Assembly: GCA_947085285.1 (NCBI GenBank)
Contig: CAMTVZ010000138.1
Span: forward strand, 330 to 64,329
DNA length: 64,000 nt
From: an uncultured Ignavibacteriota bacterium
Lineage (GTDB): Bacteria > Bacteroidota > Ignavibacteria > UBA10030 > BY39
Reading direction: 5' to 3'
Shown: piece after piece, positions 2,618 to 46,784 of the stretch
Numbering within the stretch: position 1 is the stretch's first letter
How the letters are laid out: each line of letters starts with the position of its first letter
The notes under the pieces: model-generated
What the model was told of the DNA's origin: nothing
Database searches by the model: none
The model's input: only the letters and a program-made list of their open reading frames with translations
Program-made: the position numbers and the translations under genes

Positions 2618-2629
2618 TTTAGATAATTC

Positions 2630-7948: not shown

Positions 7949-8404
7949 CTAAACTCTACAATCAATAAGTTGTTTGGTGTGATTTTCAGTTATTAACTTA
8001 ACATTTTCGCGTACAAAGTTTAAAGCGTTCTCGATCAATAATTTATTTTCCTGATTAACAGCTTGTAGATTTTTAATTATATTAGAAAGCCGATTACCCA
8101 CTTTCATAAGCCTTTCGGCATCGTTCGGATGCAACTGGTTTGTGATATGCGATAGATGAATATCCGATTTGGTTTCAGAATTTGCATCGTTACCTGCAAT
8201 TTCTAAACAAAGCATTAAACGTGCAGCTTCAAGGTTCTCTAATGGCAACATCAGGTCATAGAATTGATTAATTAAATTGCTTAAGGCGGTAATATCATTA
8301 TAAATAATCGCAAGTTGTTGCATTCGTAAGTTGGGAGCAATTAATTCTGCAAGTTCGGCTTCCATCGTCATTACAGTTTCAAGTTCTTCAATCTTTTTTT
8401 TCAT
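7949..8404 (-). CDS. Putative flagellar export chaperone (FlgN-like).
   Basis: A 151 aa helical protein immediately upstream of flgK-flgL. This matches the position of flgN/yvyG in Bacillus. Confidence 0.45.
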   Translation of the reverse strand: MKKKIEELETVMTMEAELAELIAPNLRMQQLAIIYNDITALSNLINQFYDLMLPLENLEAARLMLCLEIAGNDANSETKSDIHLSHITNQLHPNDAERLMKVGNRLSNIIKNLQAVNQENKLLIENALNFVRENVKLITENHTKQLIDCRV

Positions 8405-15181: not shown

Positions 15182-16062
15182 TGAACACTCTCTTGAACTT
15201 GCACTGTATTGTTCTTTAAATTTTCTAAGTCGGTCTTAAAAATGTTTGTATATTTTTGAATAAACAAGTCTTGCTGTTCTTGAGTCTGCAAACCAAGAAC
15301 CTGAAGAGCCTCTCTATTAAAGTCGAGTTTTCCATCAAAGATAATCCCATCACATCCAACCTCTGATGCAAAAACGTCAGCAACATGTAGTAGCACAGTC
15401 ATTTCCTGATTTCGCTCCATCTTTGTTGGGTTATGATGATTTTTAATAGCATCAACTAAAGAATCGGGGAGGTTCCACCTTTCGGCAAGCCAACCTCCAA
15501 CTTGGGCATGCGATACGCCCAAAATTTTTTCTTCGGCTTCTAAGTAAGATACATTATATTTTTTTGCCAGCTTGATTATAGCTCTGAATTCATCTGGAAA
15601 ATATTTATGCAGCACCGAGATCCCCATATCGTGCAGCAGCCCTGCAACAAATAACTCCCCCGATACTCGATAGCCCACATCGCGGGCTAAACGGCGTGCA
15701 ATAACCGCGCTCGAAATCGAATGGTCCCAATAATTTTTTGCATCAAAATACTCGTCCGATTCCTGTTGTAGTGCATTCACCATAGCCACACTCATCACAA
15801 TTTCGCGTAAAGTTTCGAACCCAAGTATTATAATTGCAAATTCGATAGTAGAAATTTTTTTTGGAAAACCATAAAAGGGAGAATTACTTATCTTCAGCAC
15901 CTTTGCTGTTAATGATTGATCGGTAGATATAACTGCGCCAAGCTGAGCGGCACTCGTCTTGGGATTGTCCAAAAGTTGGGCTATCTCCAATGCAACAGAG
16001 GACAATGCGGGCAAATGAATAATTTTTTTAACTCTCTCACGTATTTGTAAAGGGCTTAGCAT
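15178..16062 (-). CDS. HDOD domain protein.
   Basis: LPALSSVALEIAQLLDNP...VISTDQSLTAKVLKISNSPFYGF is an HDOD signature. It lies directly downstream of fliA. Confidence 0.8.
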   Translation of the reverse strand: MLSPLQIRERVKKIIHLPALSSVALEIAQLLDNPKTSAAQLGAVISTDQSLTAKVLKISNSPFYGFPKKISTIEFAIIILGFETLREIVMSVAMVNALQQESDEYFDAKNYWDHSISSAVIARRLARDVGYRVSGELFVAGLLHDMGISVLHKYFPDEFRAIIKLAKKYNVSYLEAEEKILGVSHAQVGGWLAERWNLPDSLVDAIKNHHNPTKMERNQEMTVLLHVADVFASEVGCDGIIFDGKLDFNREALQVLGLQTQEQQDLFIQKYTNIFKTDLENLKNNTVQVQESVQ

Positions 16063-16064
16063 TT

Positions 16065-16784
16065 TTAATTACTCTCCATAGTTTTTCGTAGTTCTGATAT
16101 AATTCTTGAATGGATTTGAGCTACACGCCCTTCCGATATTTTCATAATTTTTCCGATCTCTGAATATGTCAATTCTTCATAATAGTATAGCGTAATAACA
16201 TCACGGTCGCGTTGCGGAAGTTGAGCTATTGCATCGATTAAACGATCTTTCTCTTCTTCAATGCGTAGCTTTTCGTATGGATCTGTTTCAATCTCGTCCG
16301 AGACAATATTCACACCTTCCTCTTCATCATCATGTAGTTTGATTTTTTCCATATTAACTAATCTCAATGTTGAGTTCTGAAAATTTTCATCAATTTCTTC
16401 TGAATATTCTCCACAATTGAACTTCTGTTCATTTCTTTCGATAGCTAGTTGTGCTTCGCGTTCTTTTTTTCTGACTGACCGTGGAACCCAGTCTAATTTC
16501 CTAAGTTCGTCTCGTATAGTTCCCCGTATTCTGATAATGGCATAAGTTTCGAACTTCACCCCTTTCGAAGCATCAAACTTTTCGAAAGCATCCAGTAAAC
16601 CAATCATTCCAAATTGGATTAAATCATTTTCTTCTAATATCGAAGTACCAGTTGTGATAGGTAAATTATATTTCCACACAGCATAGTTTACAAGCTTGCT
16701 GTATTCTTTAACTAATTCATCTCTCACTTCAATTGATTTTGTTTCTGAATACAATTCGATTATTTTGTAGTTATCCTTTTCCAT
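16065..16784 (-). CDS. fliA: Flagellar sigma factor FliA (sigma-28).
   Basis: The region 2 motif reads LIQFGMIGLLDAFEKFD. The region 4 HTH reads LTYSEIGKIMKISEGRVAQIHSRII. Confidence 0.85.
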   Translation of the reverse strand: MEKDNYKIIELYSETKSIEVRDELVKEYSKLVNYAVWKYNLPITTGTSILEENDLIQFGMIGLLDAFEKFDASKGVKFETYAIIRIRGTIRDELRKLDWVPRSVRKKEREAQLAIERNEQKFNCGEYSEEIDENFQNSTLRLVNMEKIKLHDDEEEGVNIVSDEIETDPYEKLRIEEEKDRLIDAIAQLPQRDRDVITLYYYEELTYSEIGKIMKISEGRVAQIHSRIISELRKTMESN

Positions 16785-16791
16785 TTTTGAA

Positions 16792-17025
16792 TTATTTTAT
16801 TTTGGTCTCGCTTTTATTTGCTTGATTTTGAGTACCATTTATACTCCCTCGATCGTTCACCAACAATCTAACTGTGAGCACAACTAATACCCCTGCAGCT
16901 ATAACACCCACAAAAATTATGAATGAACGCGAAAGGAGTTCAACAATCGAAATTTCCTGTAATCCAAAATAGACTATCGAAATGCAAAATGTGAGAATGC
17001 CTATTTGAAATATAACTTTATTCAT
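16792..17025 (-). CDS. Small two-TM membrane protein, function unknown.
   Basis: A 77 aa ORF with two hydrophobic spans. It fills the flhG-fliA gap exactly. Confidence 0.4.
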   Translation of the reverse strand: MNKVIFQIGILTFCISIVYFGLQEISIVELLSRSFIIFVGVIAAGVLVVLTVRLLVNDRGSINGTQNQANKSETKIK

Positions 17026-19148: not shown

Positions 19149-21231
19149 TTATCTCCAATTTTCCAATGAATTCTACTCCTGTTTCAGCTGGCAATTCAGT
19201 GAACGATAATACTGTTATATTCGGGAATGCCGTATGAATTAAACGATAAAAATATGGCCGCACAGTCGCAGGACACAAGATGATTGGCTGATAACCCGAT
19301 GTTATAGCATGTTCAATGTTATCTGAAATGCTGTTCTGAATTTCCTGAATAAGACGGGGAGATAGTCCCAAGCTTGGACTGCTTTCTCTTTGATTCTGAA
19401 GTGCGTTTGTAATTAACTTTTCTAATTTCGGGTCCATTGCAATTGCGTGAACAACTCCTTTATCATCTTGAAACAAGCGAGCTATAGTTTCAGACAAAGA
19501 ATGTCGGACGTATTCTGTTAAAACATCTACATTTTTTGTAACCCTTGCATAATCGACTAGCGATTCTAAAATCGTAGCAAGGTCGCGTATTGGAATTCCT
19601 TCCTTCAAGAGGTTTTGCAATACTTTTTGAACTACGCCTGTTGGGAGAAGTTCAGGTGTTAACTCTTCGACTACAGCTGGATATTCTTTTTTAAGATTTT
19701 CAACAAGCCTTTTTGTATCTTGGCGTCCAAGAATTTTATGTGCATTGCGTCGAAGAATTTCTTGCAGATGTGTGGATAAAACAGAAGGAGGTTCGACTAC
19801 AGTATAACCAAGCAATTCGGCCTGATCGCGTTGGTTAGATGTTATCCAAACTGCCGGTAAACCAAATGCCGGTTCTTTTACTTGAATTCCCTCCAGTTTA
19901 TTGTCGGATGAACCTGCATTAATAGCCAGGAAACGATCCATATAAAGAAAATCGGAATTTACAACATTGCCCCGAATTTTGACTATGTATTGGTTAGGAC
20001 TTAATTGAAGGTTATCGCGAACGCGCAAAGGCGGAATTATTATGCCGAGTTCAATTGCAATTTGCTTCCGTATATTTGTAATGCGGTTGAACAAGTCGCC
20101 CCCTTGCGATTCATCGACTAATGAGATAAGCCCAAAACCAATCTCAAGTTCGATAGGGTCAACCTGCAAATAATCTTCAATTTTTTCCTGAACTTCTGTA
20201 ACGGGGGTCTTATTTTCATCAATTGCCAATGCTTCAGCTTTAGTATTTTTCATTTTCACAAAACCTAGTACGCCGGTTGCACCGGAGAGCAATAAAAACG
20301 GAACGGTTGGGAGTCCTGGTATAATTGCAAACAGAAATAATGCACCTGCCGAAATCAACAAAGCTTTTGGGCTACCAATAATTTGCTCGTTTAGTTCATT
20401 ATCAAGTTGTTTTCCCGACGCACTACGTGTAACAACTATACCGGCAGAGGTTCCAACAATTAATGCCGGAATTTGAGTAACGAGCCCGTCGCCGATAGTT
20501 AAGAGGGAATAAGTTTGCAGGGCTGTTGAAAAATCCATTCCCTTTTGAGCCACGCCGATAATAAAGCCCCCCACAATATTAATCATAGTAATCAAGAGGC
20601 CTGCAATGGCGTCGCCTTTTACAAATTTACTTGCACCGTCCATGGCTCCATAAAATTCAGCCTCGCGCGCTATTTCGGCACGGCGTTCACGAGCGTCTTG
20701 TTCAGTAATTAAGCCAGCATTCATATCGGCATCAATCGCCATTTGTTTACCGGGCATAGCATCTAAAGTAAAACGAGCCGAAACCTCAGCTATACGCCCA
20801 GCCCCTTTTACAATAACGATGAATTGAATAATTAAAAGTATAAGGAAGATAATGAAGCCAACTACATAATTTCCCTTTACAACAAAATTACCGAATGCGT
20901 TAATAACTTCGCCAGCGTAAGCTTCCCCCAAAATTAAACGTGTGGAAGATATATTTAATGCCAGCCTGAAAATTGTAACAATCAGCAATAAACCGGGAAA
21001 AACTGACAATTCGAGAGGGTGCTTAATATAAAGAGCAACCATCAGAATCAGAATCGCAAAAGTGATATTCAAGGTAAGCAGAATATCCAGCACAATCGAA
21101 GGCATCGGCAAAATCATCAATGCGAGTATAACGATAACTCCAGCCGCAAGAATTATATGCGAAAACATACCAAATAATTTACTACCGTTGCCAGTTAAAT
21201 TGTTTGTGCTATTTGTTGATTTATTTTTCAC
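19135..21231 (-). CDS. flhA: Flagellar export gate protein FlhA.
   Basis: At 698 aa it has an N-terminal 8-TM domain and a C-terminal cytoplasmic domain. Confidence 0.95.
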   Translation of the reverse strand: MKNKSTNSTNNLTGNGSKLFGMFSHIILAAGVIVILALMILPMPSIVLDILLTLNITFAILILMVALYIKHPLELSVFPGLLLIVTIFRLALNISSTRLILGEAYAGEVINAFGNFVVKGNYVVGFIIFLILLIIQFIVIVKGAGRIAEVSARFTLDAMPGKQMAIDADMNAGLITEQDARERRAEIAREAEFYGAMDGASKFVKGDAIAGLLITMINIVGGFIIGVAQKGMDFSTALQTYSLLTIGDGLVTQIPALIVGTSAGIVVTRSASGKQLDNELNEQIIGSPKALLISAGALFLFAIIPGLPTVPFLLLSGATGVLGFVKMKNTKAEALAIDENKTPVTEVQEKIEDYLQVDPIELEIGFGLISLVDESQGGDLFNRITNIRKQIAIELGIIIPPLRVRDNLQLSPNQYIVKIRGNVVNSDFLYMDRFLAINAGSSDNKLEGIQVKEPAFGLPAVWITSNQRDQAELLGYTVVEPPSVLSTHLQEILRRNAHKILGRQDTKRLVENLKKEYPAVVEELTPELLPTGVVQKVLQNLLKEGIPIRDLATILESLVDYARVTKNVDVLTEYVRHSLSETIARLFQDDKGVVHAIAMDPKLEKLITNALQNQRESSPSLGLSPRLIQEIQNSISDNIEHAITSGYQPIILCPATVRPYFYRLIHTAFPNITVLSFTELPAETGVEFIGKLEINDEY

Positions 21232-26380: not shown

Positions 26381-26396
26381 TTCAATTCTTGTGCCA
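26381..26396 (-). promoter_or_regulatory. Putative sigma-54 promoter of the fliL-fliM-...-flhA operon (TGGCAC-N5-TTGAA).
   Basis: The minus strand reads TGGCACAAGAATTGAA, about 22 nt upstream of the fliL ATG. It has the same box and the same -12 variant as upstream of flgB. The leader would be very short. Confidence 0.4.
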
Positions 26397-26560: not shown

Positions 26561-27787
26561 TTATGGAATGGAATATTTTACACGTATAGGCTCTTTGATC
26601 GAGTCGCTCTTTTGCCATTGAAGAATCATTTTAATAAAAGTCTCGGTTAATATCGAGTATGAGCGAATTAGACACAGCCCATTTCTTGTTACGATATCCT
26701 GCATTAAAATCATTCCTGCCTGTAGCTCTTCAACGGTAACGTATTTTTCAACTTCATTCTTTTGTTGTTGGCTTTGCTCTGTTCCGAAAAATAAGTTCAA
26801 TAATTCTGGGTCATAAATATCGTTAGTGCTTACTAATTTTTTGTATAAATCACTCCCCTTATTATTCAAAGATATAAGTTTATCCATATCAATTAAGATA
26901 CGAAGCAACCGTGAGCCAAGAGGTAATTCGTTTCGACATACTTTTTCGAGTACCGGTTCCCCCTTTCCACTGTAATCTTTTTTACTAAAACGAATAATTC
27001 GTGCTACATTTTTAAATTTTGGTATGTTCTCAATCAGAGCCGCACCAAGAAGCTGGTGATTTTTTGCTTCAGCAAACCTTTCGATAGCCGATAGTCCCTC
27101 TTTGTTAAGTATAACTTGTATCCATGCTGGCAAAACAGCCACGCCAATATTGAATAAATCGAAAGCACTTTCAATCTCCCAACGTTCTAATTCACTTAAG
27201 GGGGGCAATTTTTTCAAAAAAACATTCCCTAATTGTCGTACTCGCATTGTTTGAGCATTTGCCTCGGGATTGATATAGACAATTAAGTCGCTCAGCAAGC
27301 GAACAGTACCACCAACTGTTCCACTGAGAAGCTCGTTAAGTTGAGAGTTTTTCGACTTAAGTACATTCAGTAAATATTTGTTTTCTTGTAATAGATTGTA
27401 TTTTTCAAGAGAATCTCTGAGTAGTTTTTTTAGGTCGTTATCATTCCATGGTTTATTTATATAATGACTGATTTTACCGATATTGATTGCCCGCAGTGTG
27501 TCGTCGAAATCGGCATACCCTGTAATCATTATTCGGATTGTTTCAGGGGAATATTCTGACACGGTTTGTAGTACTTTAACTCCATCTACTACCGGCATTC
27601 TCTGGTCTGAAAATACTACTGCGAAAGGGCCATGTAGATTGAGATAATCCTCTATTCTCTCAGATTTATCAAGAAGATGAATGTCGCAGTTTTCGTTGCG
27701 CATAAGGGAGCGAAAAGCCGAAAGAAGATTAGGTTCGTCATCAACATATAGAATTTTTCGATTTTGAGTATAAGTATCAGTTAGCAT
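26561..27787 (-). CDS. Response regulator with a receiver domain and a highly degenerate HD-GYP-like C-terminal domain.
   Basis: The REC domain reads ILYVDDEPN...FSDQRMPVVDG. The C-terminus reads DYSGKGEP where DGSGYP would be expected. No HD dyad is present. Confidence 0.6.
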   Translation of the reverse strand: MLTDTYTQNRKILYVDDEPNLLSAFRSLMRNENCDIHLLDKSERIEDYLNLHGPFAVVFSDQRMPVVDGVKVLQTVSEYSPETIRIMITGYADFDDTLRAINIGKISHYINKPWNDNDLKKLLRDSLEKYNLLQENKYLLNVLKSKNSQLNELLSGTVGGTVRLLSDLIVYINPEANAQTMRVRQLGNVFLKKLPPLSELERWEIESAFDLFNIGVAVLPAWIQVILNKEGLSAIERFAEAKNHQLLGAALIENIPKFKNVARIIRFSKKDYSGKGEPVLEKVCRNELPLGSRLLRILIDMDKLISLNNKGSDLYKKLVSTNDIYDPELLNLFFGTEQSQQQKNEVEKYVTVEELQAGMILMQDIVTRNGLCLIRSYSILTETFIKMILQWQKSDSIKEPIRVKYSIP

Positions 27788-27790
27788 AAA

Positions 27791-28984
27791 TTAAACCTTG
27801 ATTTTATTTAGCCATTTTTCTATAACATCCTGATTTTCGGCAGCATCGTTCAATTCTAACATTTCAGCGATCTGCATAATTTTAGAAATTTCGTTTCCAT
27901 TTTGATTAATATGATGGGATACTACAGCATCGATAATTTCTTCAGGATAATTCCATAGACGTAAAAGCTCGGCACTTATTTGTTCATGAGAAATTGGAAA
28001 AATTTTTTTGTCGGCTTCTGACAGTTTTATTTTTTCAGATTTTTGGATTGAAAGCATTTTTTCGTACTTCTCAAAATCTGAACAGATTCTGACTAACAAC
28101 CCAATATCTTGTAGCATCGATGCCACGTAAACTGTTTGTGAATCAACGGGGGTGCTCCAATGGGCCGATACCTCTTTCGCAAACAATGCACGTTTTAAAG
28201 CATTATCCCAAAATATTTCGACCTGTTTTTGAACTTCATCTGGTAAATCTTTCATCAAATTCTGATACATATCGATCGCTAAGGCGAGAATTTGTACGTA
28301 CGAGGTCCCTATAAAAATGATAGCATCCCTAATGCTTGAAATATGTTTATAAGAAGCGTAATAAACAGAATTAGCAATTTGTAATACTTTAGCTATAAGT
28401 ACCGGGTTTTGCCTGACCTCTTCGACAAGTTCGTTGAGGGAGCTTTCTTTTTTATTTAAAAAAGAATGGAATCGTTCGTTAAACTTTTTTGAGGGGGGTA
28501 AATTATTGAACTTCAATAAAACATCCGACAACTTTTCGCTACGTAGTTCGTTTTGCAGTTTTATCGTTTTCGAAATGTAGTTCTTTAGCGTTGCATCGTC
28601 CCACGGTTTTAAAAAGTATTGATTAGCCAATCCATTACTCAACGCATCTAAAATTATTTCTTTTTCTTCATAACCACTTACTATTACACGAATAGCATCG
28701 GGGCAAATTTCTTTTGCCACTCTTAACAAATCAAGCCCCCCTATTTCAGGCATTCGCATGTCGGTTAGAATTATATCCACATTATAATTTTCGAACTGAG
28801 AAATTGCTTCTTTGGCAGAAGTAAATTGTAAAATGTTATAACCCTCATGTCGAAACAACCGACTTAATGCCGAAAGTATGGCTTGCTCGTCATCTATAAA
28901 AAATAATGTTGTTTGAACATTAAACGATAATTTTTGAATTTCTTTTTTTTCAGAATTAAACATTTTTATTCTATAGGCTCCCAT
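27791..28984 (-). CDS. Response regulator with a receiver domain and an HDOD domain.
   Basis: The REC domain reads LFFIDDEQAI...LTDMRMPEIGG. The HDOD domain reads NELVEEVRQNPVLIAKVLQIANSVYYAS. Confidence 0.75.
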   Translation of the reverse strand: MGAYRIKMFNSEKKEIQKLSFNVQTTLFFIDDEQAILSALSRLFRHEGYNILQFTSAKEAISQFENYNVDIILTDMRMPEIGGLDLLRVAKEICPDAIRVIVSGYEEKEIILDALSNGLANQYFLKPWDDATLKNYISKTIKLQNELRSEKLSDVLLKFNNLPPSKKFNERFHSFLNKKESSLNELVEEVRQNPVLIAKVLQIANSVYYASYKHISSIRDAIIFIGTSYVQILALAIDMYQNLMKDLPDEVQKQVEIFWDNALKRALFAKEVSAHWSTPVDSQTVYVASMLQDIGLLVRICSDFEKYEKMLSIQKSEKIKLSEADKKIFPISHEQISAELLRLWNYPEEIIDAVVSHHINQNGNEISKIMQIAEMLELNDAAENQDVIEKWLNKIKV

Positions 28985-31760
28985 TTGTGTGTGGGAGGGT
29001 TATTCGGAATTTTGTCCCTTTATTTACTTCACTTTCAACAGTGAGTGTGCCTTTATGTTTTTGTATAATTGTCTTTGATATCCATAACCCGAGCCCTGTA
29101 CCTTTGCCAACAGCTTTAGTAGTAAAAAATGGATCGAAAATTTTATTCAAATGTTCGATAGCAATCCCACTTCCGTTATCGGAAATTTCAATAATAGCGT
29201 TCTTATCTTCAGCAAAAGTTTTGATTTTAATAAATCCTTTTTCGGGTATAGCTTGAGCAGCATTCACTAATAAATTAGTAAAGACTTGCTTAAGTTCGCC
29301 CGGATTGCACTTTATGAGAGGAAGAGAACTATATTCTTTTTTGATGTCAGCTTTATATTTTATTTCATTCCATACTAATGTTAAAGTATCCTCAATAGCA
29401 TCATGAATATTACTATCAATAAATTTATCGTCACCTTTATGCGAAAACACCCGTAGCTTATCGACTATAGTCTTAATTCTTTGTGTTCCTTCTCTTGTCT
29501 CTGCAATAAGTTTATTAAAATCTTGCACAATAAAAGTAATATCAACTCGGCGTTCCAAGTCTCGTAGATCTTGCAAGAGTGCCTGTACTTCTGGTCCCTC
29601 ATTCACAAACATACCAAGAATTTGCCATTTCCTTAAAACATTCGTCAGATCTTCGATATATTCCCCAAAACGATTCAGATTGCTCGAAACAAATGCGAGG
29701 GGGTTGTTAATCTCGTGAGCAATTCCGGCTGTTAACTGTCCGATTGACGCCATTTTTTCTGATTGTATTAGGTGTTCCTGCATCTCTTTAATATTCTCGA
29801 TCATACTTTCTAATTCTTGGTTTCGCTTTAGTAGTTCCAATTCGAGAGCTTTTCGTTTCGAGATATCTCGAACAACTGCCTGGATTATTTTTTTCCCATC
29901 TAATTCCATCGCAGTTAGGAGGACTTCTGAAGGGAAATCGGTTCCATCTTTACGCCGATGTACCCATTCAAAACAGTTATTTCCTTTTTCGAGAGCGTAA
30001 TTAATTTGCTGATTTGCAAGTTGTTTTGAGTCGATATTTCCAAATTGCATCGGAGGCGAAACTTCTGCAAGATTTTGTTTACAAAATTCTTCTTTCGAGG
30101 TATAACCAAACATAGTCAGAGTTGCGTTGTTGCAATCAAAAAAACCATTTTCATCCAGAAGCATTACTGCGTTGCCGGTCGATTCATAAAGAGTACGGAA
30201 TTTTATTTCAGAATTTCTTATTGCTTCTTCTGCCATCATCTGCTCAGTTATATTTTCTATTATTCCCTCAAAAAATAATATTTCACCCGTGTCGTTCAGC
30301 TGAACCCGTTCATTCAAATTAACATATATAACGCTCCCATCTTTTTTCTTTAATTTGATTTTAAGATTCTCAGTTTTTTTTCTTTCTTTAGTTCTTTCAA
30401 GTACACTCTTCCGATCGGCTGGGTCGTAATATAGTTGCGTTGGAATATCAATACTCATTAAATCTTCTGCCGATTTATATCCTAACATTTTAACAAGTGC
30501 CCGATTTACTTTTATAAACTTACCATCTTGACTCGTTCGGAATATCCCATGGACAGCGTTTTCAAATATCGACCTGTAATCTTCTTCCGATTGTTTAAGT
30601 GCCTCTTCAATTTTCTTTCTTTCAGTAATATCTTCCCACAAACTCTCAAAAAACAGGATGTTGCCAGCCTCGTCTTCTACAATTCTTTTATCTAATTTCA
30701 CGTTTATAAGACTGCCATCTTTTTTTTTCAACACTAGTTCATAATTTTTTATACTTTTCTTCTCTATTAATTGGGAATGTAGATTAGCTTGGTCTGATGG
30801 ATTTAAATATATTTGAGTAGTAATATCGAGACTCATCAACTCTTCTTCCGACTCATATCCTAACATTTTAACCAAGGCTGGATTTACTTTGATGAACTTA
30901 CCATCTGCACTTGTTCGAGCAATTCCTTGAATAGCATTTTCAAAAATTGTTCTATAATCTCGTTCCGATTGTTTTAACTCCTCTTCGATTTTTTTTCGAG
31001 CTGTAATATCTTGCATAATACAAACAAAACCTACAAATTCTTTTTTTGAGTTACGTCTTGAAGAAATCGAGGTTTCGAAAAAACGAGTTCCATTCAACGA
31101 TTTTAGATTCCATTCGAACATTACATTCGGTTCGATCTTAGCCCGTTCCGAGGCAATCTCGAAAAGGTCGCCATTCTTTTCGCCTAATACTTCATATACA
31201 GTTTTGTTTTTATAACGGTTAAAATCTATTCCGTATATGTGTGTCATTTGTCCGTATGCTTCTTTAAAACGTAAATCTTCGTCAAGTGTAAAAACTATGC
31301 CGCTGATGGAGTCGAGGATGGTTCGCATTAATTCCTCGTTTTCGCGCAAAGTAATTTCAGCTTTTTCCTTTTGATCGATGAAGTTTTTATTTGAGATGGC
31401 TTGTTCGATAGCAGGAATGAAACGAGTAAAATTAGTTTTCATGATGTAATCGGTGGCACCGGCTTTGATCAATCCAACTGCCAGTTCTTCGTCCAAAGCC
31501 CCGGTAACAAAGATAAACGGAACAGAAGGGGCGTGCTGTTTAGCAAGTTGAAGTGCGAGCATCCCATCGAAATCGGGAATCGAATAATCCGAAAGAATAA
31601 CATCGGGTTTAAAATTTTCGAGTGCATCTAAAAAACTGTCACGCGTAGAAACTAACTTAGAAGTAAATTGCAAATGGTTAGTTTCGAAAAATTCATTATA
31701 AAGATTGAAGAATTCTTCATCATCTTCTATAATTAAAATGTGTATTTTTTCTTTCGACAC
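28971..31760 (-). CDS. Hybrid sensor kinase: N-terminal receiver, three or four PAS domains, HisKA, HATPase_c. It appears to start at a GTG codon.
   Basis: The REC domain reads ILIIEDDEE...LSDYSIPDFDG. PAS blocks repeat as QDITARKKIEE and EDITERKKIEE. The H-box reads AHEINNPLAF. The G-box reads GTGLGLWISKTI. Confidence 0.85.
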   Translation of the reverse strand: MSKEKIHILIIEDDEEFFNLYNEFFETNHLQFTSKLVSTRDSFLDALENFKPDVILSDYSIPDFDGMLALQLAKQHAPSVPFIFVTGALDEELAVGLIKAGATDYIMKTNFTRFIPAIEQAISNKNFIDQKEKAEITLRENEELMRTILDSISGIVFTLDEDLRFKEAYGQMTHIYGIDFNRYKNKTVYEVLGEKNGDLFEIASERAKIEPNVMFEWNLKSLNGTRFFETSISSRRNSKKEFVGFVCIMQDITARKKIEEELKQSERDYRTIFENAIQGIARTSADGKFIKVNPALVKMLGYESEEELMSLDITTQIYLNPSDQANLHSQLIEKKSIKNYELVLKKKDGSLINVKLDKRIVEDEAGNILFFESLWEDITERKKIEEALKQSEEDYRSIFENAVHGIFRTSQDGKFIKVNRALVKMLGYKSAEDLMSIDIPTQLYYDPADRKSVLERTKERKKTENLKIKLKKKDGSVIYVNLNERVQLNDTGEILFFEGIIENITEQMMAEEAIRNSEIKFRTLYESTGNAVMLLDENGFFDCNNATLTMFGYTSKEEFCKQNLAEVSPPMQFGNIDSKQLANQQINYALEKGNNCFEWVHRRKDGTDFPSEVLLTAMELDGKKIIQAVVRDISKRKALELELLKRNQELESMIENIKEMQEHLIQSEKMASIGQLTAGIAHEINNPLAFVSSNLNRFGEYIEDLTNVLRKWQILGMFVNEGPEVQALLQDLRDLERRVDITFIVQDFNKLIAETREGTQRIKTIVDKLRVFSHKGDDKFIDSNIHDAIEDTLTLVWNEIKYKADIKKEYSSLPLIKCNPGELKQVFTNLLVNAAQAIPEKGFIKIKTFAEDKNAIIEISDNGSGIAIEHLNKIFDPFFTTKAVGKGTGLGLWISKTIIQKHKGTLTVESEVNKGTKFRITLPHTNGSL

Positions 31761-33245: not shown

Positions 33246-33635
33246 TCATGATGCAATTACTGCACTGTCGATATTCGTGAATACATTTTGTTTCAACGAC
33301 TCGTTATCTATTGTCGTTATTATTGTTCTGTTTTTTACACTTACTATAAATGCCATATCGCGCAGTATCACCAGCGATTCTTGCGCACCTTTTAATTCAG
33401 CTTTATCGACTGCGGCTTCTAATTTTAAAAAATCGATGCTGCTTAATTCTATTTGTCTCGACTCGAGCCGTTCTTTGGCGTGCTTCGAAAACTTTAACTT
33501 GTTAAGCTCTTTCTGAAATATGTTTTCGAATGACCGCTCATTCGGTATTTCGATGGTTTTGTTGTTAGGTAAACCATTTACTCCGCCTATCGGAACAAAC
33601 GGAACATTCACACCATTTATTGTTGTATCCGTCAT
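33246..33635 (-). CDS. Small flagellar-operon protein between flgD and flgE, probably the family I recall as TIGR02530.
   Basis: A 129 aa protein with the motif FSKHAKERLESRQI. Its position matches the flgD-orf-flgE arrangement I recall from Clostridia and Spirochaetes. Confidence 0.45.
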   Translation of the reverse strand: MTDTTINGVNVPFVPIGGVNGLPNNKTIEIPNERSFENIFQKELNKLKFSKHAKERLESRQIELSSIDFLKLEAAVDKAELKGAQESLVILRDMAFIVSVKNRTIITTIDNESLKQNVFTNIDSAVIAS

Positions 33636-37915: not shown

Positions 37916-38608
37916 CTATTGTAATGAGATATTGTTTATCAATACATCTTCGAGTTTTGTCAGTTGCGATGTTATTCTCGCATCAACATTTCCTGATTCA
38001 CTTTCTATGATGCAACTTCCTCGTTCAATCTTTTCATCAGTTTCTATTGCAATCTCACGTATCGAATCGGAACTACCTTGGAGAATTGATTTTTGAGACC
38101 GCACAAGTTCGGCATCATCCGGATTAATTCGTATCTTTACTTGTTCAACTCCAACAATTCTGCTGAGTGCATCTTTAATTTGGCTCAACACAATTTCAGA
38201 CCCCAACATTATAGCTCGTTTAACAATTTTTTCTGCAACAGCGATTGCAAACTTTAATACAATGTATTCTGATTTTCTATGCAGATGCACAAATTGGTCG
38301 TGCATGCTTGAAATTAATTTCTGCATTCTGTTCTTTTCGTTTTCAAGTAATGCTTCGTATGTTTGGCGCATTACTTCTTCAGCTTTGATAATCCCTTCTT
38401 CGTAACCCCTCCGGTAATCTTCGTCTGCCCTTGCTGAGACTGGCTCTGACAATTCAGATTGGTTTTCATTCGAAACATTATCTTGTTCAACTTCAGTATT
38501 GTCCCACGGCACAAACTTGCCCTCATAATTTTCGACAAGTAAGATCTCGAGACCGTTAATGCTGTTTGACTTTAAAATATTAGACAAGAATTTCCTCCTT
38601 TCCGCCAC
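37916..38608 (-). CDS. fliH: FliH.
   Basis: A 230 aa acidic, coiled-coil protein between fliG and fliI. Confidence 0.7.
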   Translation of the reverse strand: MAERRKFLSNILKSNSINGLEILLVENYEGKFVPWDNTEVEQDNVSNENQSELSEPVSARADEDYRRGYEEGIIKAEEVMRQTYEALLENEKNRMQKLISSMHDQFVHLHRKSEYIVLKFAIAVAEKIVKRAIMLGSEIVLSQIKDALSRIVGVEQVKIRINPDDAELVRSQKSILQGSSDSIREIAIETDEKIERGSCIIESESGNVDARITSQLTKLEDVLINNISLQ

Positions 38609-39605
38609 GTCCTGATACGACTATTTCCCCCTGTTCTTCGAGGTTTTTAACAATTTCGATAATTCTTTGTTGCGCTGCTTCAACATCCTTCAATCGAACA
38701 GGTGCCATGTATTGCAACTCTTCTTTTACAAGTTCTTGGGCTCGTTCCGACATATTAGAAAAAATCTTCTGCTTCATCGTTTCGTCGGCAACCTTTAACG
38801 ATATTGCCAAATCTTTTTTATCAATTTCCCGCAATATTCTCTGGATGCCGCGACTGTCAATTTTTATGAGGTCTTCAAATTGGAACATCATTTTCTTTAC
38901 ATCGCCCGACAGAATTTCATCTTTCTGGTCGAGGTGTTCCAAAATAGATTTAGAAGTAAGGTTATCGCAGTTGTTTAATATTTGAGCCACCAATTTTTTC
39001 CCCACGATAGACTGTTTTTCGGTCCCATGTTCGGAAGAAATCAGATTGTTTACGATACTTTCGATTTCGTGGAGAATATTTTTAGGAACTTTCTCTATGG
39101 AAGCCATTCGGTAACTTACATCGTTTCGTGTATCGGTGGGAAAGAACTCGATAACTTCCCCCGCTTTTTCAGCCTCCAGATGTAAAAGTATAATTGCTGC
39201 TGTTTGAGGATGCTCCTCCATTAAAAGTTTGGCAATCTTCTCGCTTTCGATGGCATTTAATTTCTCGAACGATTTAGAGCTCCCTTTAAATTTTACCTTT
39301 TCGATAATTTCTCCTGCTTTTGATTTGCCTAAGGATTGCTCGAGAAATTTTTTAGCCCCCAACTCCCCCCCCTGAATGAAAATTTTATTGGTAGCAGCTA
39401 ATTGAAAAAATTCCTTATAAACTTGATCGACATGGTTGTCTGAAACATTTTTTAAACCGGTAATTTCGCGTGTAATCTCTTCGATTTCTTTTTGCGAAAA
39501 GTATTTCATTAATTTTGCTACGGTTTCTACATCAAGCGAGAGCAAAAATAAAGCTGCTTTTTGCTTTTTAGTTAATTTTTCAGATGTCTCTTTTTTATCA
39601 GGCAT
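38580..39605 (-). CDS. fliG: Rotor protein FliG.
   Basis: The N-terminus reads LTKKQKAALFLLSLDVETVAKLMKYFSQKEIEEI. The C-terminal torque helix region is present. Confidence 0.9.
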   Translation of the reverse strand: MPDKKETSEKLTKKQKAALFLLSLDVETVAKLMKYFSQKEIEEITREITGLKNVSDNHVDQVYKEFFQLAATNKIFIQGGELGAKKFLEQSLGKSKAGEIIEKVKFKGSSKSFEKLNAIESEKIAKLLMEEHPQTAAIILLHLEAEKAGEVIEFFPTDTRNDVSYRMASIEKVPKNILHEIESIVNNLISSEHGTEKQSIVGKKLVAQILNNCDNLTSKSILEHLDQKDEILSGDVKKMMFQFEDLIKIDSRGIQRILREIDKKDLAISLKVADETMKQKIFSNMSERAQELVKEELQYMAPVRLKDVEAAQQRIIEIVKNLEEQGEIVVSGRGGKEEILV

Positions 39606-41101
39606 TATTCCTCATCAGCTAACCAAGCTTTTAATAAGCGCGAAGCTTCTTCCGGATTATTATTCAATAACTCGGCAACTACTTCGCGCCGGTTCCCTTG
39701 ATTTAAAATAGCATCGTATTTTCCTTGCAACGCAGATGGTGCTAATGCAGCAATACCCTCAATAGAATTATCAGTGTTCTTAAATCTTTTTAAAAGCGAC
39801 AATAAAATAACAACCGCGGCCCCCATTGCTATTGCAATAATTAGTAATTTAATCCAATCATCATATTTTGTTACAGGGTCGATCTGATATTGAAAATCAT
39901 CATTTATATTTTCAACTGCAAAAGGAAGATTTACAACTGATATTTCGTCGCCTCGCTGAACATTATAACCGACCGCTCTTTTTACAACTTCCGATATTTT
40001 CATTAATTCATCTTCAGTTCGAGGTTCATTCTCGGTAACAGTCTCGTTGCCTTTTGTTACAACTTTTTGTTTTCCGTTCACAGTAACCGCAATAGATATG
40101 CGTTTGATACTCCCTTGATTTTCAATTATTCTTTCAATTTCTTTATTTATTTCATAATTAGTAACAGTATTGGTACGAATCGATGAAGGGGACGAATCTT
40201 TGGAAGTTGTTTTATCTTCACTTAGCTGCTCGCTTCGTATTGCAGTATTTTCAGGGTCGTATTTTTCCATCGTTCTTTCAACTTGTCTGAAATCGAGTTC
40301 GGCATTCACCTGAACAATTGCATTGTTTGCACCTAACACTCCGTCGAGCAGTGATTGTGCTTTGCTTGTAAGAGATGCTTCAACCTGATGTTGGAGTTCG
40401 TATTGCGCAGCGGTGAGCGAGGCAAAATTATTTTGCTTGTTGTTATTAGATAATAACATCCCACGCGAATCGACTACCGTTACATTTTCCGGATCCAAGC
40501 CTTCGACGCTACTCGAAATTAAATGAACAATCCCTTGAATTGTTTCGGGGCTCGGAGCTTTTCCTGTTCGTAATTTTAAAATCACTGAAGCAGTGGGTGG
40601 CTTTTCGTCTTCCTTAAATAATTTTCTTTCGGGCAATACTATATGCACACGAGCCCCTTCCACTTCGCCAATTTGAAGAATCGTTCGAGCTAATTCTCCT
40701 TCTAAAGCTCGTCGATAATTTACTTTTTGAACAAAATCTGAAATTCCTAAATTCGTTTTGTCGAATATTTCGTAGCCAACAATACTCGACTGTGGAAGCC
40801 CCTCGCCGGCAAGCGATAACCTTAAATCGTATATAATTTCCTTTGGAACTAATATAGTTGAGCCGTTTCCTTCGAGTTTATAAGCTATCGATTTCTCTTT
40901 TAATTTTTCAACTATTTTTGAGGCATCCTGCGGTGCTAAATTACTGAAGAGAGTTCCATAATCGGGACTATTTACAAACATCACCAACGATATTACTGCA
41001 ATAAGGGTTACAACTAAAACTCCTGCAATAATCAGCTTTTGCGAAGTAGAAAGTTTTTTAAAAAACTCAAACGATTGATTTAAATTTAGTTCCTTATCCA
41101 T
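39605..41101 (-). CDS. fliF: MS-ring protein FliF.
   Basis: At 498 aa it has an N-terminal TM segment, a YscJ-like periplasmic domain and a C-terminal TM segment. Confidence 0.9.
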   Translation of the reverse strand: MDKELNLNQSFEFFKKLSTSQKLIIAGVLVVTLIAVISLVMFVNSPDYGTLFSNLAPQDASKIVEKLKEKSIAYKLEGNGSTILVPKEIIYDLRLSLAGEGLPQSSIVGYEIFDKTNLGISDFVQKVNYRRALEGELARTILQIGEVEGARVHIVLPERKLFKEDEKPPTASVILKLRTGKAPSPETIQGIVHLISSSVEGLDPENVTVVDSRGMLLSNNNKQNNFASLTAAQYELQHQVEASLTSKAQSLLDGVLGANNAIVQVNAELDFRQVERTMEKYDPENTAIRSEQLSEDKTTSKDSSPSSIRTNTVTNYEINKEIERIIENQGSIKRISIAVTVNGKQKVVTKGNETVTENEPRTEDELMKISEVVKRAVGYNVQRGDEISVVNLPFAVENINDDFQYQIDPVTKYDDWIKLLIIAIAMGAAVVILLSLLKRFKNTDNSIEGIAALAPSALQGKYDAILNQGNRREVVAELLNNNPEEASRLLKAWLADEE

Positions 41102-41106
41102 AATTA

Positions 41107-41412
41107 TTATACCTGCATCCTCATTATTTCACGGTATGCATCTATTGCTTTGTTGCGCACTTCCATCAATAACTCGAAACTAGTTTTTGCTTTTTCTGCG
41201 GCAATCATTACCTCGTGTAAATCAATTGGATCGCCTTTTACCAATTTTTCTACAGCTTCTCCGGCTTGAGCTTGCAAATTATTTACAGCCGCCGTTGCTT
41301 CTTTTAAAGTTTCGCCAAACGATTTGTTGGTTTCTTGAATCGCTTCGTTTATTTTCTGTTTCTTTTGCATAGCATCGTTCGGTAACAATGTTAATCTGTT
41401 GCTGATTTTCAT
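41107..41412 (-). CDS. fliE: FliE.
   Basis: The 101 aa protein ends in DLHEVMIAAEKAKTSFELLMEVRNKAIDAYREIM. Confidence 0.8.
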   Translation of the reverse strand: MKISNRLTLLPNDAMQKKQKINEAIQETNKSFGETLKEATAAVNNLQAQAGEAVEKLVKGDPIDLHEVMIAAEKAKTSFELLMEVRNKAIDAYREIMRMQV

Positions 41413-41414
41413 AT

Positions 41415-41663
41415 CTATCCTTTCCTGTCGATTACTGTTCCAACCTGCATTTTTTTTGGAGTTCCTGATTTGCTGTAAAAATATTCTTCCCGAATTTCCT
41501 TCGAAGCTTCGGGAAAAACCTTTTCAAAAAATTTTGTTTCGGCCTTTGATAAAATTTCGTTCTTAATGTTCTCTGTAATTTGAAAATTAGCCTTGTCGGC
41601 TTTCTTATATTTATTTACCAAAAGCGATTGGGTGATTGATGATTTTATTTCGTTAACATTCAT
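41415..41663 (-). CDS. Hypothetical 82 aa lysine-rich protein inserted between flgC and fliE.
   Basis: A tightly packed ORF with 3-nt gaps on both sides. I recognise no family. The canonical flgB-flgC-fliE triplet is interrupted here. Confidence 0.4.
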   Translation of the reverse strand: MNVNEIKSSITQSLLVNKYKKADKANFQITENIKNEILSKAETKFFEKVFPEASKEIREEYFYSKSGTPKKMQVGTVIDRKG

Positions 41664-41666
41664 TAA

Positions 41667-42164
41667 TCAAATCTCCAGACTGTCTTTAGCTATACTTTTT
41701 TCAGCATTAATAACAGTTACGTTGGCTTCGTAAGCTCGTGAGGCTGAAATCATATTCACCATTTCAGCCACTATGTTTACATTTGGGAGGCGAACATAAC
41801 CGTCTTGGTTCGCATCGGGGTGAGTGGGGTCGTAAACCATTTTTAAATGCGAATCGTCCTCTTCAACCTCTATTTCGATCGATTTTACAGGGTTTTGAGA
41901 AACTGGTGTTTCGATTTCCGCCACTGATATATGATTAGGATTTGTTGTACTTAGCGAAGCGCTATGTTCGCGAATTGTGCTTAGAAACGACTGCTTCGAT
42001 GTTTGTTTTACTTGAACTACTTTTCGTTTGTAAGGCAAACCCTCTTCGGTTCGTGTCGTTTCAGTATTTGCAATATTTTCAGCGATTGCATCCATACGTT
42101 TGCGTTGCACTTTCAAACCGAATGCTGCAACATTTAGCCCGGAAAAAATTTTTTCTAGTTTCAT
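41667..42164 (-). CDS. flgC: Proximal rod protein FlgC.
   Basis: The N-terminus reads FSGLNVAAFGLKVQRKRMDAIAENIANTETTRT. The C-terminus reads VNMISASRAYEANVTVI. Confidence 0.9.
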   Translation of the reverse strand: MKLEKIFSGLNVAAFGLKVQRKRMDAIAENIANTETTRTEEGLPYKRKVVQVKQTSKQSFLSTIREHSASLSTTNPNHISVAEIETPVSQNPVKSIEIEVEEDDSHLKMVYDPTHPDANQDGYVRLPNVNIVAEMVNMISASRAYEANVTVINAEKSIAKDSLEI

Positions 42165-42583
42165 GAATATCCTTTTATACTTTTTTGAATACCTTTAAAA
42201 CTATCGGCAATAATTCGTGCAGCAAACTTAAACCTGATTTGATTTTTTGCTAACTCAGCCATTTCTAAATCGATGTCCACATCGTTAATACCGCTTTTTA
42301 GTTCATTGTCGCTATTCCCCTCCACAGAATTTTCAACTACTTTTGGATTTAGATCCGTAAACTTTGAAGAGTTTATAGGAATATGATCAGGATGAGTGCA
42401 GCCATCTATGTTGGAATTTTTCGACATCGCTAAGTTTAGTTCTTCCTCAAATCTTACACTTTTACTTTTGTATCCTTCTGTAGTAATGTTTGCAATATTC
42501 AATGCGATTGTTTTTTGACGGAGCGAATAAGCATCGAGGGCTTTGCTCAACAACGGTATTTTTGTCTTGTTGAAAATATTCAT
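42161..42583 (-). CDS. flgB: Proximal rod protein FlgB.
   Basis: The N-terminus reads LDAYSLRQKTIALNIANITTEGYK. The C-terminus reads MAELAKNQIRFKFAARI. Confidence 0.85.
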   Translation of the reverse strand: MNIFNKTKIPLLSKALDAYSLRQKTIALNIANITTEGYKSKSVRFEEELNLAMSKNSNIDGCTHPDHIPINSSKFTDLNPKVVENSVEGNSDNELKSGINDVDIDLEMAELAKNQIRFKFAARIIADSFKGIQKSIKGYS

Positions 42584-42804
42584 TTGCTATCCTTAAATAA
42601 CGAAGCTGGAATCGCCAGCGATGTTCCACAGCAATCTATTTGATGTGTAAATATCAACAACCCTTCCGGTCGCAAACCCAAATGTATTTTTTTTCTGTCT
42701 ATCATGTGTCCATTAAAATCGATATCCTGGTCATTCAAAAAGGTTTCTTTCGATTCCCAGCTTTTTCCACATAAAGTACAGTTTTTAAAAACTTTATTTC
42801 GCAT
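42580..42804 (-). CDS. Small Cys-containing protein with CxxC and a CC pair, possibly a zinc ribbon. It is the first ORF of the flgB operon.
   Basis: The 74 aa protein starts MRNKVFKNCTLCGKSW and ends QIDCCGTSLAIP. It overlaps the flgB start by 4 nt. Its ATG lies about 20 nt downstream of the putative sigma-54 box. Confidence 0.4.
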   Translation of the reverse strand: MRNKVFKNCTLCGKSWESKETFLNDQDIDFNGHMIDRKKIHLGLRPEGLLIFTHQIDCCGTSLAIPASLFKDSK

Positions 42805-42831: not shown

Positions 42832-42847
42832 TTCAAACGATGTGCCA
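42832..42847 (-). promoter_or_regulatory. Putative sigma-54 promoter of the flgB operon (TGGCAC-N5-TTGAA).
   Basis: The minus strand reads TGGCACATCGTTTGAA, about 28 nt upstream of the first ATG (42804). The -12 element reads TTGA, not TTGC. A sigma-54 activator is encoded immediately upstream. Confidence 0.5.
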
Positions 42848-45781: not shown

Positions 45782-46045
45782 CTAAGAAGGTTCGTTTTTT
45801 AAATCTTTTAAAACCTTCTCTGCAATTTTTTCTAAAACTTCGTACTGATCATAAAACCCTTCTTTAAGTTTTTTTTCGATCTCTTCTAATTGTTTTACTT
45901 TTTGATCTTTTGCGAGAGCACGAGCTGCTTCCGATATGTTCACCTTGTCGGTGTCCGACGGCTTGGTATTTTCGGTCGGCTTCGTTTTCTTTAATTTCGG
46001 TATCTCGACCGGATATCCACTTTTATTTATTTTATTAATAGTCAT
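45782..46045 (-). CDS. flgM: Anti-sigma-28 factor FlgM.
   Basis: The 87 aa protein ends in ISEAARALAKDQ...KLKEGFYDQYEVLEKIAEKVLKD, which resembles the sigma-28-binding helices. Confidence 0.7.
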   Translation of the reverse strand: MTINKINKSGYPVEIPKLKKTKPTENTKPSDTDKVNISEAARALAKDQKVKQLEEIEKKLKEGFYDQYEVLEKIAEKVLKDLKNEPS

Positions 46046-46057
46046 AATAATCTCTTT

Positions 46058-46462
46058 TTATTTGTACGATGCAATTGCTTTTTGAATTGTAGCTTTTTTA
46101 ATTAATTCGATCAATTCGTTTTTTTTTGTGTCGAGCGTGTAAGATAACAATTCGTTACTGTTACGTAATTCTTCAAATAGGGGTAAAAATATTTCATTCA
46201 GTTTGTCTTTTACTTCTATGCTTGTAGTAAAATAATAAATTTTCTCTTTTAATAAAACTGCCCGATTTAATAACACTTCTCGTTTTTCTATCAGCTCGGT
46301 TGCTTTATCGTATTCCTCATTCGCAATACATTGTGTGAGGAAAGAAGTAATTGAGTTGATATTTTCGCAAATCTGCCTTTGTTCAACGATAAATTTTTCG
46401 ATGTTGCTGATCGCAGTTTTATATTCAAATGTATAACTCGTATTTATGTTACGATTTTTCAT
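46058..46462 (-). CDS. Putative flagellar chaperone (FlgN/FliT-like), all-helical, 134 aa.
   Basis: It sits between flaG and flgM. It has helical heptad character. No motif is decisive. Confidence 0.3.
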   Translation of the reverse strand: MKNRNINTSYTFEYKTAISNIEKFIVEQRQICENINSITSFLTQCIANEEYDKATELIEKREVLLNRAVLLKEKIYYFTTSIEVKDKLNEIFLPLFEELRNSNELLSYTLDTKKNELIELIKKATIQKAIASYK

Positions 46463-46784
46463 CGACCAGCAGTCCTATAAATTTTGCAATATTTTCAGAA
46501 ATCTTCCTCAATTCCTTGGGAGGGATTTCTTTTATTACTTCATTAGTTTCAGAATCTATCAATCTGATTATTACTTTTTTAGTTTTTTCGTCTATCGAGA
46601 AAGTTAAATTAATTTTATACTGACTGATTTTTTCGTTTATTATTTTTGTCAGTTCAATAATTTTTTCGACAGATAAATTATCTTCAGCTTTTTGTATTAT
46701 TCTACTTTTACGGCTAAGCCCCTTATCGTTCGTATCGACCACGCCCGATTTATTAATTTGCGATATGTTTTCGATAGATTTCAT
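46449..46784 (-). CDS. flaG: FlaG family protein.
   Basis: The C-terminus reads TFSIDEKTKKVIIRLIDSETNEVIKEIPPKELRKI. It is next to fliD. Confidence 0.6.
   Translation of the reverse strand: MKSIENISQINKSGVVDTNDKGLSRKSRIIQKAEDNLSVEKIIELTKIINEKISQYKINLTFSIDEKTKKVIIRLIDSETNEVIKEIPPKELRKISENIAKFIGLLVDEKS

Follow-up and report, generated by a model that had tools for sequence, protein, structure and literature searches.

A small gene fixed between flgC and fliE in Ignavibacteriota and related bacteria encodes a basic, largely disordered protein with a FlaG-type C-terminal tail

Few gene strings of the bacterial flagellum are as conserved as flgB-flgC-fliE, and work on how assembly of the rod begins is still in progress. 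Here, we describe a small gene, designated gene X, that lies inside this string on a DNA stretch of 64,000 nucleotides from an uncultured Ignavibacteriota bacterium (assembly GCA_947085285.1, contig CAMTVZ010000138.1), which is referred to below as the window. Gene X is a genuine protein-coding gene under purifying selection, and its previously uncurated family is a fixed member of an flgB-flgC-X-fliE module in Ignavibacteriota, Kapabacteria, Calditrichota, and Chloroherpeton-type bacteria. The genomic context gives good support for a role linked to the proximal rod and to export. By analogy with FlaG, we tentatively propose that X, being small and disordered, docks on the type III export gate of the flagellum, where it would act at the rod stage and then be exported itself.

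The original prediction had placed an open reading frame (ORF) of 82 amino acids (aa) inside the flgB-flgC-fliE triplet. Its translation proved to be exact, and the neighboring genes were confirmed with Pfam and NCBIfam: the order is flgB-flgC-X-fliE-fliF-fliG in one long minus-strand string, and the remaining window is a nearly complete flagellar regulon. The ORF had also been described as separated by 3 nucleotides (nt) from both neighbors, which is correct for flgC (TGA TTA ATG), whereas the gap to fliE is only 2 nt (TAG AT ATG). A GGAG is found 9 nt upstream of the start codon. With 14 lysines in 82 residues and a pI of 9.5, the product is indeed rich in lysine, as had been predicted.

A word-indexed protein search with X retrieved X itself and only one other protein, which is 73% identical and whose gene sits in the same place in a different assembly (locus L001). 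Between these two orthologs, the ratio of nonsynonymous to synonymous substitution rates (dN/dS) was 0.111, compared with 0.046 to 0.079 for flgB, flgC, fliE, fliF, and fliG, and values of 0.03 to 0.29 were obtained for X in ten further species pairs with resolvable dS. A sample of 80 genome loci anchored on FliF relatives was then translated in six frames; 71 of these contain both flgC and fliE. A phmmer search with X over all six-frame ORFs gave 33 nonself matches, all between flgC and fliE. With an iterated hidden Markov model, 52 of the 71 loci were found to carry an X homolog in the flgC-fliE gap, with intact reading frames, and no match occurred elsewhere in the 80 loci. The host records are labeled Ignavibacteriota/Ignavibacteria, Kapabacteria, Calditrichota, Chloroherpeton, or "Bacteroidota" metagenome-assembled genomes (MAGs). 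Conservation at the same position and dN/dS had both been suggested as checks on the gene, and both came out in its favor. In two more loci X is damaged, in one because the ORF runs into masked N (L031) and in the other by a frameshift in a long-read assembly (L049); the apparent absence of X from these two is not a real loss. Lack of conservation, or a frame disrupted in relatives, had been named as grounds for refutation, and this was not borne out. The median distance of X is 19 nt on the flgC side and 20 nt on the fliE side, and in the closest relatives the genes overlap by 4 nt.

A chance reading frame in a spacer, or a decaying fragment, would resemble X in being short and in lacking both a database annotation and a predicted fold. 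However, intact syntenic orthologs number 52 and come from several phylum-level groups, all 11 pairs have a dN/dS far below 1, and invariant residues stand at fixed positions. Since orthologs are kept at the same position and dN/dS ranges from 0.03 to 0.29, X is more than a chance ORF, and the probability that it is spurious is negligible.

Curated databases had no name for the protein. Pfam and NCBIfam gave no match for X and no consistent match among 49 family members scanned, and a sequence profile search of the PDB returned noise only (the best match being PBP3, with an E value of 0.009, to low-complexity sequence). A profile search of a database of 5.8 billion clusters yielded 67 X-family proteins without a Pfam domain, whose source names, where given, are "hypothetical protein" or evident misannotations. 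An exhaustive HMMER scan of 1.84 billion representatives found 255 matches at E ≤ 1e-3 and 109 at E ≤ 1e-10; among the matches listed (the best 150 of the 255), lengths range from 36 to 140 aa, with one matched stretch each. The statement that X belongs to no recognizable family therefore holds for Pfam, NCBIfam, and the PDB, but an uncurated family of 255 clusters does exist, and alignments A2, A3, and A5 are a ready-made definition of it for annotation. A description of a gene at the flgC-fliE position, or of Ignavibacteria flagellar genes, did not turn up in the literature searched.

Insertions between flgC and fliE had been thought to be rare, which is wrong for this lineage: 65 of the 71 loci with both genes carry an ORF in the gap. 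An occupied gap is the rule in this part of the Fibrobacteres-Chlorobi-Bacteroidetes (FCB) group and is absent in the sampled outgroups. The gap was empty in six loci, with flgC and fliE 6 to 31 nt apart; these belong to Spirochaetia, two Bryobacterales, Gemmatimonadales, one unclassified bacterium, and one Ignavibacteriales MAG (L039), in which the distance is 31 nt (positions 3631 to 3663). The locus of this MAG retains the Cys-rich leader ORF described below and has an extra ORF of 100 aa before flgB.

The immediate partners of X could be narrowed down in loci with a broken gene order. In L086 and L087, flgB-flgC-X-fliE (L086:3001-3252) is followed by unrelated genes and not by fliF, and in L089 and L090, flgB-flgC-X (L089:3001-3324) is followed by a tRNA modification gene (mnmA-like) and not by fliE. 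X stays linked to flgB-flgC even without fliF or fliE, and therefore its constant partners are flgB and flgC. This conservation with flgB-flgC where fliF or fliE is elsewhere is also why the context supports a role linked to the proximal rod and export. As a side observation, genomes of the L086 and L089 types have their rod genes separated from the MS-ring genes, with X remaining with flgBC.

Nine further loci, from Fibrobacterota, Raymondbacteria, Chitinivibrionales, and unclassified bacteria, have an ORF of 79 to 142 aa in the same slot (L054, L055, L059, L062, L068 to L070, L074, and L077; sequences P0204 to P0222, alignment A4). These Fibrobacterota-type gap ORFs make up a second unnamed family of small proteins, with an N-terminal YNFVKLVDAARQRN-type motif and the tail ILGNFFDAYA-COOH. 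Homology to X was not demonstrable, since hhalign aligned only the last 5 to 6 residues (P of about 0.1), and an expansion of the family found no sequences bridging it to X. A Cloacimonadales gap ORF was aligned with X over 50 columns (P = 0.002) and a Zixibacteria gap ORF over the core motif (P = 0.08). On the basis of these alignments, the latter two look intermediate between X and the Fibrobacterota-type ORFs.

Position counts over 150 members were used to describe the protein. The family is 80 to 110 aa long (median, 98 aa), with a median pI of 9.4, and no 15-residue window in any of the 150 is hydrophobic enough for a transmembrane segment or a signal peptide. The conserved N terminus is followed by a polar linker that varies in length and sequence and then by the core motif E-x-x-F-F-x-x-x-[FY]-P, which was found in 149 of the 150 members, its invariant F lying 44 to 72 residues from the N terminus. 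Invariant residues in the core of X are E42, F46, and P51. AlphaFold2 gave no fold for X (65 sequences; predicted local distance difference test [pLDDT] score, 57), with only residues 40 to 49 and 51 to 59 helical, and no fold for the canonical member P0052 (150 sequences; pLDDT, 60), in which only the core motif is helical. A Foldseek search of the PDB with the P0052 model returned nothing below E = 4. From these models, X is read as a protein that would be disordered alone and would bind its partners through short motifs.

A possible partner is suggested by the last nine residues. The family tail has the consensus K-G-x-[IL]-[VIF]-D-[GRA]-[RK]-x-COOH, with G at position -8 and D at position -4 in 149 of the 150 members. 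A scan of the window ORFs with the tail pattern of X picked out the FlaG of the window, a bona fide FlaG that is encoded separately from X, and the two tails, VGTVIDRKG and IGLLVDEKS, are in identical register: both have G at -8, a pair of hydrophobic residues (Φ) at -6 and -5, then D at -4 and K at -2. This register was found in 11 of 11 metagenomic FlaGs (alignment A7) and in YvyC of B. subtilis (PDB 2HC5, ...LGLFVDEK), and the FlaG construct of 6JSX ends with ...IGIIFD. The pattern G-x-Φ-Φ-D-x-x-x-COOH occurs in 17 of the 1141 fetched ORFs of at least 120 aa, namely, in 14 FlaGs, two Fibrobacterota gap ORFs, and one other, which corresponds to a background of about 1 in 1124 other ORFs. When the hhalign comparison of X with FlaG was restricted to the C-terminal halves, the last nine residues were aligned end to end (P = 0.0032). 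X did not match the Pfam FlaG model PF03646 even at E ≤ 10, FlaG was not among the 25 most-matched families listed for 49 X-family members at E ≤ 1, and whole-profile hhalign of the X family (A5) with FlaG (A7) aligned only 8 N-terminal columns (P = 0.02; P = 0.16 with a single FlaG). Judged by these comparisons, the likeness of the two tails is a shared short linear motif and not family membership.

Two other proteins of the window, FlgN (...QLIDCRV) and FlgL (...TLLDYLR), end with Φ-Φ-D-x-x-x-COOH in the register of X and FlaG but lack the G at -8; Φ-Φ-D stands three residues from the end in five window ORFs, four of which encode flagellar proteins.

In Campylobacter jejuni, FlaG limits filament length by antagonizing the docking of the FliS-flagellin complex on the FlhA torus, and FlaG is also secreted itself, by the flagellum's type III secretion system (fT3SS) (PMC11536152). 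In an AlphaFold 3 model, the last six residues of FlaG form a β-strand that pairs with FlhA strand 431 to 439 (IRIRDNLRL), and paired alanine substitutions in this strand resulted in filaments of ΔflaG length, less FlaG secretion, and weaker coimmunoprecipitation (PMC11536152). A counterpart of this strand, LRVRDNLQL, is present in the FlhA encoded in the window.

If the analogy holds, X would be made together with the first axial subunits, and its C-terminal tail would join the cytoplasmic torus of FlhA as an added β-strand at LRVRDNLQL, as proposed for the FlaG tail of Campylobacter. The FFxxxF motif and the N terminus of X would engage FlhB-C and the gate in the manner of rod/hook-type substrates. 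As FlaG limits the length of the filament, the action of X would have to fall at the rod stage; docked X may tune the acceptance of substrates by the gate during rod assembly, for example, by keeping late chaperone-substrate complexes off FlhA, and would finally be cleared through its own export. The mechanism proposed here rests on a motif of nine residues and on analogy, whereas the reality of the gene and its distribution are solid. We hold it to be the likeliest of the functions considered, though at less than even odds, and part of the probability goes to some other function altogether.

The tail may also be viewed more broadly, as a portable address tag (G-x-Φ-Φ-D-x-[KR]-x) that directs unrelated small disordered proteins to the FlhA torus at different stages of assembly, an extension that we regard as doubtful. 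The stage of action would then be the filament for FlaG and the rod for the X family and its Fibrobacterota-type positional counterparts. If this were true, X would be the first example of a gate antagonist or timer that works at an early stage, and it would be conserved in much of the FCB superphylum.

Export of X itself was considered from the patterns in its N-terminal half. The general form of the gate-recognition motif was reportedly given as FxxxΦ by Evans et al. in 2013. In the window, FxxxΦ is found at residues 30 to 47 of FliE, FlgB, FlgF, FlgG, FlgJ, FlgD, FlgE, and FliK; FlgC, with F at 15 and 60, is the exception among the rod/hook-type proteins. The first 80 residues of FlgK, FliC, and the FlgM candidate contain no FxxxΦ, and in FlgL and FliD it is limited to about residue 53 or later, or to the region near the N terminus. 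X has FFEKVF at residues 45 to 50, which fits the FxxxΦ pattern, a short match that is weak evidence by itself. Early rod and hook subunits have been reported to need two signals, one of which is formed by small nonpolar residues at the extreme N terminus, among about the first seven residues (PMC8983047). Such residues are found at positions 3 to 6 in the X family, position 3 being I, V, or L in 138 of the 150 members and positions 5 and 6 being mostly A, G, I, or L.

The same N-terminal features would also fit an exported assembly factor that works outside the cytoplasm during rod initiation, where it would transiently serve the first FliE/FlgB/FlgC layers as a cap, scaffold, or spacer before being lost; FlgD, the N-terminal domain of FlgJ, and FliK are transient exported factors of that kind at later stages. 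The N terminus and FxxxΦ of X resemble those of early substrates, its linkage to flgB-flgC-fliE is tight and probably includes translational coupling, and its disorder is shared by exported subunits that have not yet assembled. On the other hand, Flg_bb_rod and Flg_bbr_C motifs, heptad-type terminal helices, and a predicted fold are all missing from X, and the window already encodes a normal FlgJ that has a Rod-binding domain. Moreover, the conserved tail of X matches a motif for which the single example studied acts on the FlhA torus, in the cytoplasm (PMC11536152). Taken together, such an external factor seems unlikely.

There are, however, several points that speak against gate docking by X. 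Binding, export, and any phenotype of X are putative here. No similarity between X and FlaG is detectable beyond the last nine residues, and therefore the link to FlaG rests on a short linear motif that was found post hoc. The contact between FlaG and FlhA is itself an AlphaFold 3 model backed by mutants and not a solved complex (PMC11536152). Furthermore, FxxxΦ and a hydrophobic residue at position 3 are features of low information that are expected by chance in about one-quarter of proteins, and in many Fibrobacterota-type analogs the F motif is only about 15 residues from the N terminus, which does not fit the spacing rule for the gate motif. Finally, the flgC-fliE gap contains no gene in at least one lineage that is related (L039), and therefore X is dispensable or replaceable.

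The upstream region of the operon points to another possible function. A σ54-type -24/-12 element, TGGCACATCGTTTGA, was found by pattern match ahead of the flgB operon, with one mismatch to TGGCAC-N5-TTGC, and it is conserved in L001 inside an otherwise diverged upstream region. Genes for an NtrC-type σ54 activator and a histidine kinase directly precede the X operon in the window. X might thus be a nonexported cytoplasmic adaptor or regulator, either an escort of FlgB, FlgC, or FliE or a FliX-like reporter to the upstream σ54 activator. The promoter and the regulatory genes are in line with this, as is the small size and basic character of X, which would fold on binding. However, the activator is not a conserved neighbor in the relatives: strong matches were found in only three other loci (L053, L067, and L084), none of which was shown to pair it with X, whereas flgB-flgC are always neighbors. 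Rod subunits are described as unchaperoned (PMC8983047), and the conservation of the extreme N terminus and of the C-terminal tail would be left unexplained. A purely cytoplasmic function is therefore improbable in our view.

Upstream of the operon, a block TGGCTAATA.TTAACAGTTTG...AATAGTCTCCAA is conserved in L001 together with TGGCACATCGTTTGA and could be an activator site, and a second σ54-type -24/-12 element, TGGCACAAGAATTGA, lies just upstream of fliL. The first gene of the operon encodes a Cys-rich protein of 74 aa (CxxC ... CC), and its stop codon overlaps the start of flgB (ATGA); neither Pfam nor NCBIfam matched it, but homologs were found upstream of flgB in L001 (4e-30) and in L039, which lacks X (2e-11).

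Several known identities were tried and discarded. X is not an axial rod protein of the FlgB/C/F/G type, as neither X nor any scanned family member matched Flg_bb_rod or Flg_bbr_C. Because these motifs and a predicted fold are missing, a structural role in the rod is not supported. The original suggestion of a small rod or export-gate accessory protein is thus supported in part: the context speaks for a role linked to the proximal rod and export, and the FlaG-type tail is a specific clue to the export gate. X is also not the rod-binding domain of FlgJ (no PF10135 match, and a normal FlgJ is present), its comparison with FliE by hhalign was not significant, and it does not match the C-terminal 24-residue Flagellar_put motif of the PF12611/TIGR02530 proteins (hhalign, P = 0.12).

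FlgM, the anti-σ28 factor that is small, disordered, and secreted at completion of the hook-basal body, deserves separate mention. The size, the disorder, and the M-K-I-N-type N terminus of X recall FlgM, and fliA is present in the window. However, none of 49 members matched PF04316 or the NCBIfam FlgM model (TIGR03824) even at E ≤ 1 to 10, and hhalign of X with the FlgM candidate of the window aligned only 7 N-terminal residues (P = 0.18). This candidate, a protein of 87 aa encoded after flaG and an unknown gene for 134 aa, fits better: PF04316 was aligned over its full length, albeit with an E value of 0.14, and its sequence is typical (DKVNISEEA...G.Y...IAEKVL). It scores below the gathering threshold and so would escape routine annotation. 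That X is an FlgM-type protein is therefore very unlikely.

Features with coordinates are listed in Table 1. Further flagellar genes identified in the window are motAB (two pairs), csrA, fliW, flgL, flgK, flgN, flgJ, flgI, flgH, flgA, flgG, flgF, fliA, flhG, fliR (by position), fliQ, fliP, fliO, fliL, flgE, the gene for the PF12611 protein, flgD, fliK, fliJ, fliC, fliS, fliD, and flaG, as well as, probably, flhF, flhA, and flhB (by position and size) and fliN and fliM (by position); fliI and fliH were assigned via the orthologous genes in L001. Additional signaling genes lie between flgE and fliL and at 13805-16062, the two complete motA-motB pairs flank fliW-csrA, and among three ORFs inside flagellar operons or gaps, the 77-aa ORF matched no family and the 213-aa and 134-aa ORFs had no Pfam match.

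Table 1. Coordinates of features in the 64,000-nt window
Feature	Coordinates	Strand	Description
motA-motB, first pair	1850-3505	-	complete
motA-motB, second pair	4182-5680	-	complete
flgL	5682-6572	-	
flgN	7949-8404	-	
flgJ	8388-9203		Rod-binding (PF10135) plus SLT domains
213-aa ORF	13171-13812	-	upstream of flgF, inside flagellar operon; no Pfam match
HDOD protein and GAF kinase	13805-16062		further HDOD protein
fliA	16065-16784		
77-aa ORF	16792-17025	-	two hydrophobic segments; fills flhG-fliA gap; no family match
FlhA residues 402-410, LRVRDNLQL	20002-20028	-	counterpart of C. jejuni torus strand IRIRDNLRL; proposed docking site of FlaG tail
σ54-type element upstream of fliL	26382-26396	-	-24/-12 type
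Three signaling genes between flgE and fliL	26561-31760	-	929-aa receiver-PAS-histidine kinase, receiver-HDOD, receiver-HD_5 (HD-GYP type)
PF12611/TIGR02530 "flagellar operon protein"	33246-33635	-	129 aa; between flgD and flgE; 2e-10; FxxxΦ at residues 36-44
fliG	38580-39605	-	Pfam/NCBIfam
fliF	39605-41101	-	Pfam/NCBIfam
fliE	41107-41412	-	directly downstream of X; PF02049, 1.8e-28
gene X	41415-41663	-	ATG-to-TAG ORF, 82 codons; 82-aa basic, largely disordered protein; unnamed family
X tail, residues 74-82, VGTVIDRKG-COOH	41418-41444	-	FlaG type: G -8, Φ Φ -6/-5, D -4, K/R -2
X core motif, residues 42-51, ETKFFEKVFP	41511-41540	-	E-x-x-F-F-x-x-x-[FY]-P, predicted helical
X N terminus, residues 1-8, MNVNEIKS	41640-41663	-	family consensus M-[KRN]-[IVL]-x-[AG]-[LI]
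flgC	41667-42164	-	directly upstream of X; TIGR01395, 1.2e-42
flgB	42161-42583	-	TIGR01396, 4.3e-26
Cys-rich ORF	42580-42804	-	first gene of operon
σ54-type element ahead of flgB operon	42833-42847	-	-24/-12 type; pattern match
FlgM candidate	45782-46045	-	87 aa; PF04316, E = 0.14 (below gathering score)
134-aa ORF	46058-46462	-	downstream of flaG, inside flagellar operon; no Pfam match
flaG	46449-46784	-	PF03646, 1.9e-20; product ends IGLLVDEKS-COOH; next to fliD and fliS

A fourth selected gene that is fixed in flgB-flgC-fliE implies that the rod base is built or regulated in these bacteria with a component that is missing from the Salmonella and Bacillus models. Lineage-specific small accessory proteins of the flagellum are a known kind and the system is an ordinary flagellum, but the X family itself was uncurated, and across several phylum-level lineages it breaks into a string of genes that is commonly taken to be invariant. 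Its tail ties a hypothetical protein to a mechanism that was published only in 2024 (PMC11536152), and if binding to FlhA-C and fT3SS-dependent secretion hold true, the model of FlaG-FlhA antagonism would be extended from the control of filament length to an earlier checkpoint.

Among the known systems, FlaG resembles X in being a small protein of a flagellar operon with a flexible N-terminal half and the C-terminal tail G-x-Φ-Φ-D-x-[KR]-x-COOH. Unlike FlaG, X lacks the β-hairpin and the EVIRQIPP core, and it is encoded with the earliest rod genes and not with fliC, fliD, and fliS. The early substrates FlgD, FliK, and the N-terminal domain of FlgJ, which are exported and not retained, share with X a disordered N terminus, small hydrophobic residues at about positions 3 to 6, an FxxxΦ at least 30 residues in, and coexpression with the rod genes; X is far smaller, has no globular or axial domain behind these signals, and its export is only putative. 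FlgM is likewise a small, intrinsically disordered flagellar protein with an M-x-I-type N terminus and is a substrate of the fT3SS, but X lacks its σ28-binding C-terminal domain and sits in an early operon. The PF12611 protein is, like X, a small and uncharacterized flagellar protein whose gene is embedded in an operon of the same cluster, and it too has an FxxxΦ, but it is encoded between flgD and flgE and its C-terminal motif is in a different register. The Fibrobacterota-type gap ORFs occupy the same genomic slot as X, are similar in size, start with M-x-[IV], and have an invariant F in an FxxxΦ pattern and the tail LG-x-F-F-D-x-Y-A-COOH in the same register, whereas their F motif, unlike that of X, lies near the N terminus.

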